Source of the DNA: Verrucomicrobiota bacterium
GTDB lineage: Bacteria > Chlamydiota > Chlamydiia > Chlamydiales > Rhabdochlamydiaceae
Assembly: GCA_018240065.1 (NCBI GenBank)
Contig: JAFEGH010000002.1
Span: 28,997-92,996, forward strand
DNA: 64,000 nucleotides
Direction of reading: 5' to 3'
Shown here: positions 1-3,000 of the stretch, one piece after another
How positions within the stretch are numbered: position 1 is the stretch's first letter
Layout of the letters: every line of letters starts with the position of its first letter
Position numbers: made by a program

Positions 1-3000
1 TGCGATGAGCATCAGGCTGAACTTGCGGTAGGTGCTCGCTTTGACGAAGATAAGGTAGGTCAGCAATCCCCCGATGATCGCCACTCGCGCATAGAGAAGA
101 TACTCCTGCAGAGATGCAAAAACTCCCCAGGCGGCGCCTTTATTGATCACGTGGACGATGGAAAAATCGATTCCATGCCAGTCGCGAAAGACGCTGATCC
201 CGCCATAAGGAAAAATTGGCGTGGACGCATTGATCGTGGGGATATTGTGATGGATATAAGCCTTGAGAGCGCCATCGGCAAAAAAGATAACGATAGCTAG
301 GGCGATAAAGCTGAAGGCCTTTTTCCAATTCATGACTACAGAAGTCCTTTTTCCAGTTTTTCCTGAGCCTTGACCGTCATTGCGGCGTAAGGGACAGCTT
401 CAAGTCGCGCCATCGGGATTTCTTCACCCGAGATGTCGCAGATGCCATAAGTGCCGTCTTCAATTTTCTCCAGAGCGCGCTCGATCTGGCGGAGAATCCC
501 GAATTCCTTGCTTGTGACCTCGAGAGTGATCGTGCGGTTGAAGTCATCGGTTCCCTCATCGGCCTGATGCTGGGAATATCCTTTGGTCTCATCGGCAGAT
601 TTCACATCTTCGCTGGTATCGCGGATCAAATGAGTCATCTGATCGCGCATGTCCTCCAGCCTTTTTTTAAATTTCGCGATATCCGCTTTTTTTAATGCCA
701 TTGCTGCTACCTCTTGTTTGATAGTTCAATCTGATTTTCCAACTCGTCCTTGGGATTGATGTGCTCGATGGCGTCCATCAACTCGTCGACATCCTTGAAG
801 CGTCGATAAACGCACGCAAAGCGGATGTAGGCGATCGTGTCCAAAGCCTGCAAATGCTTCATGACAATTTCTCCGAGCTCCGAGGTCTTAACCTCGCGAA
901 CTTGCCTCTCCATCAGATCGGTTGCGATCTTGTAGGCTAAAGCCCTCACCTGGTCGTGGCTGATTCGCGTATGCCGGCAAGCGGCGTCTAAGCCTCTGAT
1001 CAGTTTGTCCTGGCGGAAGTCCTCATAACGCCCATCTCTCTTTTGCACCTGGATCGTCAAATCGATCGTCTCAAACGTCGTAAAACGGCGCAGACATTTC
1101 AAACACTCGCGACGGCGTCTGACCGAGTTGCTCTCGGTGACGTTGCGGGAATCGGTGACTTTGGATTCCTCATGGTTGCAAAAAGGACAGCGCATCGGAT
1201 GCCTCTCTTCCAGGGACTCTCTCTAGGAGGATCCAGTCTGGCTTTGTAAATTTTACTAATTCTGATGCTTTTCTATACACTTCAAGGTTTTTTTGAAAGC
1301 TCATATTAGCCCCGGCCGCACGCTGCAAACCTCGCTAATTGCGGCCGGGATCTTTCGTTTGCATATCATAAACTAAATTTTTTACTTAACACTTTCTTCC
1401 ATTTCGGTCGAGCTATTCAAAATCCTCTTTCCGAAAAATTTTGAAAACAGCATCGCGAAACCGCCGTTGCCCAGCACGTTAGCGCATGTAATTACAGGGT
1501 CGAACAGGATATAGAGCGCTGTAATTAAAGACATCATTTCCGCATTGAATCCCAGGCAGCTTTCCAAAACCGGAAGCATGACAATGATCCCTCCGCCCGG
1601 GATCGCCGCGACGGAAAATTTCGCCATCACGAAATAAAAGGCGAATGTCAAATAGGCCAAAAGCTCGGGCTGGGGGGCGCCGAAATTCTTTAAAACCGCA
1701 AAAGCGAAGATGGGGATCGCAAAACAATCTCCAATCAAATGGATGTTGACCGTCGCTGGAATCGCAGCTCGCGCCACATCGGGATGGCTCGCATTCTTTT
1801 CCGCTCCCACAATCGTCAGCGGCATCGCGGCCGCGCTCGACATCGACCCAAAACCCGCGACAGCCGCCGGAAGCATGTTTTTGACACTCCCTAGAAATCG
1901 CGGAAGCTTAAAACCGCTGGCAGCCATGTAGATCAACGCGATGTAGCTGAATACCGCCAATGCAACGACGGCAAAGATAAGGGCATAATCCTTAAGGATA
2001 CTGACGATCACACCGTCATGGGCCAGCTTCATCGCAAACCCTGCAATGAACAGCGGCATTGCAAGCAGAAACCCGCGCAGCACCTGATTCACTCCCCTTT
2101 CCAAATAGGAGGAGAGATTTGCGGCTGCGGCAGGCCTTATCAAAGAGAGCGCCAGCCCTAATATAAGACCTGCAAACATCGCCTGTGCGTTGGAGACCCA
2201 CTTCGGCAGGGCAAGCACCCATGCCGGCTGGAGTCCCGCATGGTCCTGCGGCAATGCAATCGACAAGTCGAAATGGTGGACCAGCATCCCCACGTTAAAA
2301 CTGAGCATCGTCGAGAGAAAATTGGAGCAGCAGATAGCGATTAAAAGAAAAACAATGATCTTCGTCGCCTGCTTGGCAAGCTGAGCCGCTGTTTTGAAAA
2401 GCAGGCCAAAAATGACGAAGGGCAAGAAGAACATGATGAGCGATTTGATCGAGGCCCCCAGCGCAAAAAAGACCGATTGGGCGCTTTCGGGAATATACGG
2501 GTTGCACAGAGCTGAAAGAAAGATGACAGCGAGCAAAATAAACGGCATTTTATGGAACATACAGGATTCTCCACCTGAGGATTTAATGAATGTTGGAAAA
2601 AATGTGGGGATAAGAAAGTGCTGTTACCGGCGGAGGCCGGTCGTAGCGGTGGAGAAACGGGTGGTAGTTAAAATAGTTTTAACCAGTCGCATCATTTGTG
2701 ATTGTAGCTTATAGAAGGATTATTGTACCCGAACAAATTCAATTCGGCAAAAACCCTCCTTTGAGAAAGCTGAAAATTATTTAGATTTTTGAGTTTACTT
2801 TTTTTTTGAAATGGCTTAGACCTCATTTTTATACAAGAGATCTCACCTAATGGATAGAGAGTGATTAAAAGATGAAAAAGGCATTCAAAATCGCCATTGT
2901 AGTCCTGATCTGTCTGGGCTTCATCGCATTAACTGCTTTATATATCAGCAACCACACGATCGATGTTTGGGAACCCAAGGGGATGATCGGCGAGAAAGAG

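Follow-up and report, generated by a model that had tools for sequence, protein, structure and literature searches.

The locus considered here raises the question of why a short, threonine-rich reading frame, part of which mirrors the ribosome-binding site of the next gene, precedes a putative amino-acid symporter in an environmental chlamydia. It lies in a stretch of 64,000 nucleotides (nt) from contig JAFEGH010000002.1 of a member of the Rhabdochlamydiaceae, hereafter the window, to which all coordinates refer; both leader and symporter are read on its minus strand. The symporter gene (1382..2560) encodes a protein of 392 residues belonging to the sodium:dicarboxylate symporter family (DAACS; Pfam PF00375). 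It is preceded by an upstream open reading frame (uORF; 2624..2695, ATG at 2695, stop codon TAA at 2626-2624) of 23 codons, with the predicted peptide MMRLVKTILTTTRFSTATTGLRR, in which codons 7, 10, 11, 12, 16, 18 and 19 specify threonine. Codons F14-S15-T16 (TTC TCC ACC; 2648..2656) read TTCTCCACC, the exact reverse complement of the Shine-Dalgarno (SD) region of the symporter, GGTGGAGAA (2567..2575), whose core GGAG (2572-2569) lies 8 nt 5' of the start codon (ATG, 2560-2558). This anti-SD segment has a first cluster of threonine codons close by on its 5' side (codons 10-12, ACT ACC ACC; 2660..2668) and a second pair on its 3' side (codons 18-19, ACG ACC; 2639..2644), the latter running into a GC-rich hairpin, ACCGGC-CTCC-GCCGGT (2626..2641). 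An initial annotation of this DNA had described the seven-threonine uORF, the 9-nt complementarity and the 6-bp hairpin, and had proposed translational attenuation in response to threonine; on the minus strand the coordinates and the peptide, the exact complementarity and the location of the hairpin were all confirmed.

We think it rather probable that this leader is a ribosome-dependent device responding to how much charged tRNA-Thr is available, and that it adjusts the translation of the SDF-family symporter accordingly. The uORF would be translated from the 5' end of the mRNA, probably as a leaderless or nearly leaderless frame, and its middle codons (F-S-T in the window), flanked by threonine codons, would be the segment that can pair with the symporter SD region. 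With plentiful Thr-tRNA the ribosome would reach the stop codon and leave; from the last codon on its footprint would no longer lie over the anti-SD, which could then pair with the SD, and the symporter would be poorly translated. With scarce Thr-tRNA the ribosome would wait at the threonine codons with its footprint over the anti-SD, so that the SD would be free and the importer would be made. In some relatives threonyl-tRNA synthetase (ThrRS) would also be made under such a shortage. The comparative evidence largely supports a reading of this kind, as detailed below.

Each feature of the leader, taken alone and in one genome, is unremarkable. Among the 12,677 ATG-initiated reading frames of 15-40 codons in this genome, 40 have at least 7 threonines or at least 30% threonine, and by our estimate a 9-mer complementary to the ribosome-binding site (RBS) window would be found within ~130 nt by chance at ~0.5% of genes, or about 1 in 200. 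As the chance levels in a single genome are unimpressive, the case rests on comparison with relatives, where conservation and co-variation carry the same features beyond chance.

Orthologues of the symporter, with 51-79% identity, are present in 47 of the 129 genomes of the same family (Rhabdochlamydiaceae). In most genera of the family the gene is preceded by a short uORF that ends in T-T-G-x-x-R-stop (TAA or TAG) and carries the same hairpin: the last threonine codon and the glycine codon form the 5' arm, and the last two codons together with the T of the stop codon form the 3' arm. The stop codon is typically followed by a G-poor, T-rich spacer of ~60 nt and then by the SD. The leader is absent from genus g53, from part of g25 and from the second symporter copies of g24. 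A pattern search recovered it in 27 of the 129 family genomes, and a covariance model (R1) built from an alignment of 46 sequences (A2) in 31, in each case as one copy per genome. Wherever the downstream gene can be read (in genome G083 it is cut by the contig end) the leader stands 5' of this symporter, the exception being genome G133, where it precedes thrS; none was found upstream of the three other SDF paralogues of the window genome. R1 also matches four other chlamydial families, in which the loci examined (L316-L318 and L321) are all upstream of a symporter orthologue, and the cultured carriers of the leader include Protochlamydia naegleriophila, whose strain KNic has it at ~1379-1440 of L328, and P. 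phocaeensis.

The association extends beyond the chlamydiae. A scan of species-representative genomes yielded symporter orthologues of 53-62% identity in alphaproteobacterial and legionellalean isolates and metagenome-assembled genomes (MAGs), labelled Caedimonas, Candidatus Odyssella, Candidatus Finniella, Caedibacter varicaedens, Rickettsiales, Rickettsiaceae, Legionella bononiensis and Legionellales. Most of these loci show the same leader, with a threonine run, an ACCGG...CCGGT hairpin and a stop codon; the carriers are Caedimonas, Odyssella, Finniella, Caedibacter, the Rickettsiales MAG, Legionella bononiensis and the Legionellales MAG, and their peptide tails include ...YTTSTTTGSSR, ...VTTTTGISR, ...LTTTTGRCR and ...TTTTTSTGTGR. 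In five proteobacterial genomes the leader was found by R1 as a single copy. The symporter clade as a whole is confined mainly to intracellular bacteria. Within the genus of the window genome the symporter has a patchy distribution, being present in 7 of 18 genomes, and yet its identity to proteins of Holosporales-like bacteria, Rickettsiales and Legionellales is 53-62%; such a pattern is characteristic of genes exchanged between bacteria that have protist hosts in common. As leader and transporter are the same across such distant taxa, both are likely to have moved together among the intracellular bacteria of protists.

That the uORF is translated, and that its threonine codons are under selection, can be judged from the way in which the leaders vary. 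An in-frame reading frame is present in all collected leaders, its N-terminal half being variable in sequence and length and always open. Over 51 distinct leaders threonine accounts for 23.3% of the codons in the uORF frame, whereas the two alternative frames have 2.0% and 1.1%. Counted back from the stop, codons -5 and -6 are threonine in 83-85% of these leaders, and codons -7 to -9 in about half of them; within the genus of the window the T-T at the position of the first cluster is likewise conserved. Codon -5, which is part of the stem, is ACC in 41 of the 51. Codon -6 lies outside the stem and is threonine in 42, in all four synonymous forms (ACC 18, ACG 14, ACA 6 and ACT 4). This synonymous variation at a conserved threonine position indicates selection on the amino acid, or on its tRNA family, rather than on a nucleotide motif. 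In the same vein, related uORFs differ mostly at third codon positions (e.g. 3/3/16 and 6/4/21 in genus g56). The tail of the frame behaves otherwise. Both the codon third from the stop and the first base of the next one lie in the hairpin loop and vary freely, that next codon encoding R, S, C, H or G; the stop codon itself sits in the loop at L151, L160 and L318, three loci in which it comes right after T-T-G; and where the stem has been re-made the peptide tail is altered with it, to A-G-S-S-L or A-V-K-G-R. Because the loop codons vary freely and the re-made stems rewrite the peptide tail, the tail is constrained as RNA and the threonine run as codons. In four loci of genus g56 (L056, L059, L060 and L061) the usual leader is replaced by a 32-residue uORF (MFLxIYSFDQSSYVCF.TSF.TFSIN..GLG.) that is conserved at the amino-acid level with a strong third-position bias, and that has few threonine codons and a degenerate hairpin; this frame may sense something else or work through its peptide.

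The proposed output would work through the pairing between uORF and SD. In the window the minimum-free-energy fold (-32.8 kcal/mol, z = -2.5) places the anti-SD:SD helix around the hairpin. The initial annotation had asked for an alignment of the related upstream regions, and in these the pairing is kept through compensatory changes, CCACC/GGTGG being replaced by CCACG/CGTGG, CCATT/AATGG, CCGTT/AACGG or CCACCC/GGGTGG. Thus TTCTCCACC and GGTGGAGAA of the window correspond to TCTCCACG and CGTGGAGA in L004 and L007, to TTCTCCACG and CGTGGAGAA in L008, to TTTCCATT and AATGGAGA in L003, to TTCTCCGTT and AACGGAGAA in L035, and to CCACCC and GGGTGG in genus g24. The register of the pairing shifts between lineages, and co-variation was tested by duplex energies and permutation and not by alignment columns; RNAalifold run on 11 upstream regions recovers only the 6-bp hairpin, the MAFFT alignment losing the anti-SD register. 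In 33 leaders the uORF pairs with its own SD at -12.35 kcal/mol and with foreign SDs at -9.74 kcal/mol (permutation p ~5e-5), and with 50 unique SD windows the values are -10.71 and -8.67 kcal/mol (p ~2e-5). Such an excess of cognate pairing points to co-evolution, since neutral drift from a complementary ancestor would have let cognate and non-cognate pairing decay equally. The spacer, whose pyrimidine tract can also pair with the SD, was considered as a second anti-SD and rejected, as its pairing shows no cognate effect (p = 0.42-0.56).

The geometry of the pairing is compatible with control by a waiting ribosome. Measured over 50 leaders from the first base of threonine codon -6, the anti-SD has a median position of -18 to -8 nt, which falls inside the footprint of a ribosome with this codon in the A site. 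The footprint takes in at least 80% of the anti-SD in 28 of the 50, and among the 27 leaders that form strong duplexes it does so in 19. In the free RNA the mean predicted unpaired probability of the SD core is 0.14 over 52 leaders and 0.16 in the window. When the ribosome was represented by keeping positions -18 to +11 about the A site unpaired, with the RBS taken as -18 to +12, the energy needed to open the RBS of the window fell from 13.7 kcal/mol in the free RNA to 10.3-10.9 kcal/mol with the A site on codons 10-21 (10.9 kcal/mol at the first threonine cluster), and stood at 14.1-14.5 kcal/mol with the A site on the last codon or the stop. The model of the window thus matches the prediction that a ribosome in the threonine-flanked part would free the SD and that a terminating ribosome would not.

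A link to threonine that does not depend on counting codons comes from the neighboring genes. In genome G133 the gene that follows the leader encodes a ThrRS, recognizable by its TGS, tRNA_SAD and class II core domains, and this leader, MRRTAFFRLTTLLKTTTTGPRR, is together with its promoter orthologous to the symporter leader of G136, MRRKASFKLTTLLTTTTTGLRR, a genome of the same genus. In G134 and G136 thrS lies directly 3' of the symporter on the same strand, with a gap of 60 nt in G136. It looks as if in G133 (L087/L090, C18 ~53,660-53,780, compared with L300 in G136) a deletion has removed the symporter and fused its promoter and leader to thrS. As judged from gene order, the linkage to thrS ties the element to threonine independently of the codon content; no leader was found upstream of thrS in the window genome or in 26 other genomes inspected. 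Furthermore, the window genome (93.8% complete) has no threonine synthase (thrC) above the family cut-off (best score 66 as against 167 bits) and no homoserine dehydrogenase that could be found, whereas both searches were positive in all 14 control genomes. The symporter matches PF00375 with an E-value of 1.2e-33 (117 bits; residues 12-374 aligned to positions 8-386 of the 387 of the model), and its database names are generic. In an alignment with human EAAT3 the aspartate that binds the α-amino group (Asp444) and Asn451 are kept, the arginine that binds the side-chain carboxylate (Arg447) is replaced by isoleucine, and the NMDG-type motif is divergent. From established SDF structures, replacement of this arginine by a neutral residue is expected of a neutral amino-acid carrier. 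It is therefore probable that the symporter is an importer of neutral amino acids, with threonine or serine as the putative substrate on the ground of its context.

The hairpin and the spacer, like the pairing, appear to belong to a conserved design. The hairpin (arms 2641-2636 and 2631-2626, a 6-bp stem with a CTCC loop) spans the last five sense codons of the uORF in the window, and its final T is the first base of the stop codon. In alignment A2, 96% of the cells of the stem are paired. No in-register double change was found among these 46 sequences, and the support for the stem as RNA comes solely from G.U variants and re-made stems, namely GGCTG/CAGCC in L047, L058 and L134 and CGGCC/GGCCG in Protochlamydia naegleriophila. 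The initial annotation had taken it as a stem that closes the leader; it is present, but seems to be more than that. A role as a thermodynamic clamp of the closed fold was tried and rejected, its contribution being just 0.4-1.4 kcal/mol. By geometry its 5' arm would enter the mRNA channel exactly as the threonine run is decoded, and in most orthologues a T-run follows it at a distance of 8-10 nt, not adjacent to the stem. It is possible, on this geometry, that the hairpin acts as a pause site for RNA polymerase or as a roadblock for the ribosome, and the position of the T-run would fit a hairpin-dependent polymerase pause. The spacer between the uORF stop and the SD (2576..2623) is pyrimidine-rich and has one G in 48 nt in the window; over 51 leaders its composition is 5.6% G and 48% T. 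Rho might enter here and add polarity as long as the symporter is not being translated, which would also carry the signal to a thrS gene in the operon.

Several observations sit uneasily with attenuation by threonine-dependent unmasking of the SD. Some leaders are poor in threonine, with 3 threonine codons in Protochlamydia naegleriophila and 1-5 in genus g56. The thrS leader of G133 has no specific complement to the thrS RBS (-6.5 kcal/mol), and must either work in another way or be the product of a recent fusion. No NCBIfam equivalog, such as SstT, was matched by the symporter at E <=0.001. The hairpin adds only the 0.4-1.4 kcal/mol given above to the occlusion of the RBS, and its near-invariance is unexplained by the model. 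Over 52 leaders, moreover, the mean drop in RBS opening energy brought about by the ribosome is only ~2-2.6 kcal/mol; it is 2.1-2.5 kcal/mol on the four codons before the stop, about the same as on the threonine codons, and 1.7 kcal/mol at the stop itself. In the presence of the ribosome the unpaired probability of the SD core goes up only from 0.14 to ~0.2; most of the core is still paired at equilibrium, since it can find other partners in the pyrimidine-rich spacer. Folding accordingly lends modest support, and the real switch would probably be kinetic.

These difficulties give some room to other accounts. A uORF that senses threonine in the same manner might act mainly on transcription, through termination or pausing at the hairpin and T-tract or through Rho at the spacer, with SD pairing as a secondary matter. 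The near-invariance of the hairpin, its small contribution to RBS occlusion and the T-run that follows in most orthologues would suit such a mechanism, as would the thrS leader of G133 with its lack of a cognate anti-SD and the thrS genes 3' of the symporter in G134 and G136, which would need an operon-wide output. The T-run, however, stands apart from the stem, a terminator-like site was not detected at the locus, and neither a conserved stem extension nor an antiterminator partner was seen; being inside the uORF, the hairpin would be melted by a ribosome at the threonine run or at the stop, which leaves no obvious switch. Likewise, the low G content of the spacer resembles that of a rut site, but the spacer is T-rich rather than C-rich and ~40-60 nt long. 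The significant co-variation of uORF and SD is not predicted by control of transcription, and we regard a mainly transcriptional output as unlikely.

The conserved tail of the uORF invites two further interpretations. The peptide could be an arrest peptide of the TnaC/SpeFL kind, whose C-terminal T-T-G-x-x-R-stop stalls the ribosome on a small molecule; this would account for the conservation of T-T-G...R-stop across phyla and for the fixed relation of the stop codon to the hairpin, and the 32-residue uORF of g56, conserved as a peptide with its strong third-position bias, would be an apt example. It is hard to reconcile with residues second and third from the stop that vary with the loop bases, with stop codons placed directly after T-T-G (L151, L160 and L318), with re-made hairpins that rewrite the tail (A-G-S-S-L, A-V-K-G-R) and with an N-terminal half variable in sequence and length; a ribosome held at the stop would, moreover, leave the anti-SD uncovered. 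Arrest of this kind is in our view very unlikely. Alternatively the palindrome ACCGGC-N4-GCCGGT might be a protein-binding site, either a DNA operator or an RNA hairpin recognized by a protein such as ThrRS, the threonine codons being a by-product. A stem sequence conserved across phyla with almost no in-register compensatory change is what such a site would show, and E. coli ThrRS is generally known to bind its own mRNA (mentioned in PMC2965389). Against it, the threonine codons outside the palindrome are kept through synonymous changes, the frame and start of the uORF are conserved, and G.U variants and re-made stems befit an RNA helix and not a sequence-specific site; its spread across phyla would also need a co-transferred factor, and a conserved neighboring regulator gene was not seen. 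The chances of a protein site are slighter still than those of an arrest peptide. Finally, a functionless threonine-rich reading frame with a fortuitous 9-nt complement could be entertained in one genome, where 40 of the 12,677 small reading frames are as rich in threonine and the promoter match is at chance level; the conservation of a single-copy, co-varying element in dozens of genomes from three bacterial classes effectively refutes it, and it is given next to no credence here.

As for how the uORF would be expressed and started, the window has a σ70-like promoter, TTGCCG-N17-TACAAT (2722..2750, minus strand), which is the sole promoter-like match in 2300-3000. The near-consensus promoter of the initial annotation is therefore present, though the number of matches at the locus (1 found, 1.5 expected in shuffled sequence) is not significant by itself. 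It aligns with TTGCGG-N18-TACAAT of the closest orthologue, in which the -10 box ends 7 nt 5' of the uORF ATG. A second TACAAT box in the window (2701..2706, minus strand), 5 and 8 nt 5' of the two uORF ATGs, stands where the orthologues have their conserved -10 box. Many chlamydial orthologues have a hexamer resembling TATAAT that ends 6-8 nt 5' of the uORF ATG, and show no SD-like sequence; in G136 a consensus TTGACA-N17-TATAAT is followed by 8 nt and then by the uORF ATG; other loci instead show a uORF SD or a longer 5' region. The spacing between -10 box and ATG suggests that the uORF is leaderless or nearly so. In two loci (L006 and L032) the leader and its promoter lie directly downstream of a tRNA gene, and the uORF of L032 has a TTG or GTG start with an SD-like AGAGGG, unlike the SD-less ATG starts elsewhere. 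The gene 5' of the leader in the window encodes cytochrome oxidase subunit II and is divergent, so that the 311-nt gap between it and the symporter gene is a divergent promoter region; nrdR follows the transporter gene. A terminator scan gave no intrinsic-terminator-like site on the leader strand at the locus, in agreement with the initial annotation, which had noted that a classic terminator is lacking.

If the attenuator reading is carried further, the leader might represent a mechanistically distinct class that has moved, in a single cassette with the transporter, among intracellular bacteria of different phyla (Chlamydiota, Holosporales- and Rickettsiales-like Alphaproteobacteria, and Legionellales), with the hairpin as an active part of the sensor. 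The hairpin would then be a roadblock that makes decoding of the adjacent threonine run rate-limiting or, alternatively, a pause hairpin that synchronizes RNA polymerase with the ribosome on a leaderless uORF. We put this forward tentatively, as a possibility that is less probable than the basic scheme of tRNA-Thr sensing and translational control of the symporter.

Among known systems the element works, by analogy, like a cross between thrL and the SD-unmasking attenuators of the erm/cat type. In common with the E. coli thrL leader (Thr_leader, RF00506) it has a short leader frame rich in threonine codons, whose rate of translation would report the charging of tRNA-Thr and set downstream expression. 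Unlike thrL it has no terminator/antiterminator pair, its output appearing to be SD sequestration; its codons are those of threonine only and not of threonine and isoleucine; and it controls a transporter, sometimes thrS, in auxotrophic intracellular bacteria, whereas thrL controls the biosynthetic genes thrABC. An Rfam cmscan of window positions 1-8000 (E <=10) gave no match in 2558-2750, Thr_leader and T-box included. The leaders of ermC/ermB and cat/cmlA similarly rely on a paused ribosome in a leader frame to unmask a paired SD, with the anti-SD within reach of the ribosome, but there the pause comes from an antibiotic and a specific nascent peptide and here it would come from a shortage of charged tRNA at threonine codons; further, the four-segment fold of erm contrasts with a single long-range helix enclosing a hairpin here. 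In the T-box systems of Firmicutes (thrS/thrZ and transporters) low charging of tRNA-Thr also turns on ThrRS and uptake genes, but the RNA binds uncharged tRNA directly, whereas here the sensor would be the translating ribosome. Leaderless polycysteine uORF attenuators of mycobacteria are short uORFs, enriched in one amino acid, that tune downstream genes (bioRxiv 10.1101/834739). They resemble the present uORF in starting at or near the mRNA 5' end and in the enrichment of the codons of one amino acid, and differ in phylum, amino acid and targets, the leaderless start being here a prediction from the -10-to-ATG spacing. The symporter itself resembles the SDF/DAACS carriers of the SstT/ASCT type in its PF00375 fold, the retained α-amino aspartate and the change of the carboxylate-binding arginine to a neutral residue; it differs from them in lacking an NCBIfam equivalog, in its divergent NMDG-type motif and in belonging to a clade found mainly in intracellular bacteria.

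The initial annotation knew of no such leader in chlamydiae. This needs to be qualified, as predictions of trpL leader peptides exist for Chlamydia trachomatis and C. felis (PMC3937554), so that a leader peptide with codons for a sensed amino acid had already been proposed in Chlamydiae. Those leaders concern tryptophan and biosynthetic or salvage genes, with a predicted terminator-type attenuator, and are restricted to Chlamydiaceae, whereas the present element occurs in environmental chlamydiae and proteobacterial endosymbionts. As to the threonine element itself, in the full-text literature covered, which excludes most subscription journals, no description was found of a threonine leader that precedes a transporter gene or thrS, nor of the present motif. 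Its points of interest are the spread across phyla together with the transporter, what it hints about the function of an uncharacterized clade of transporters, and the puzzling stop-codon hairpin.

Two other elements were met in the course of the searches. A repeat of ~60 nt (CCCAAACAACTT...GATTCAAT.AT.GC) is common to the upstream regions of two other SDF paralogues, with copies at ~57836-58250 of the window, 5' of the paralogue at 56747-57835 (minus strand), and at C13:367759-368100 of genome G000; the copy in the window has an inverted partner ~170 nt away (ATGCCCAAACAACTTCAAAA / TTTTGAAGTTGTTTGGGCAT). This may be a repetitive element or else a regulatory RNA that the two have in common. 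A pattern scan of metagenomes with ACNACNACCGGCNNNNGCCGGTAR was uninformative with respect to the leader, returning almost only matches in GC-rich coding sequence and an unrelated hairpin element that follows stop codons. The latter, on metagenome contigs L166-L245, consists of a stop codon, then ACCACTACCGGCTAAAGCCGGTAGGTT and further short hairpins; it is very widespread, occurs at many GC contents and has the look of either a conserved structured RNA or one end of a mobile element.

The stop-codon hairpin and the nearly G-less spacer of the threonine leader are not accounted for by textbook attenuation. Little is known of cis-regulatory switches in chlamydiae and in other bacteria of obligate intracellular habit, and a conserved, single-copy leader that probably senses an amino acid adds one to them. 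The codon bias of the leader, its linkage to thrS and the missing threonine pathway point to the uptake of threonine (or serine and threonine) as the function of the transporter clade, and the joint occurrence of leader and gene across distant phyla with shared protist hosts suggests that a regulatory element and its target can spread together. If the two indeed form a travelling cassette, threonine import would stand out as a regulated bottleneck of life inside cells, and this orphan clade of transporters would gain a function.

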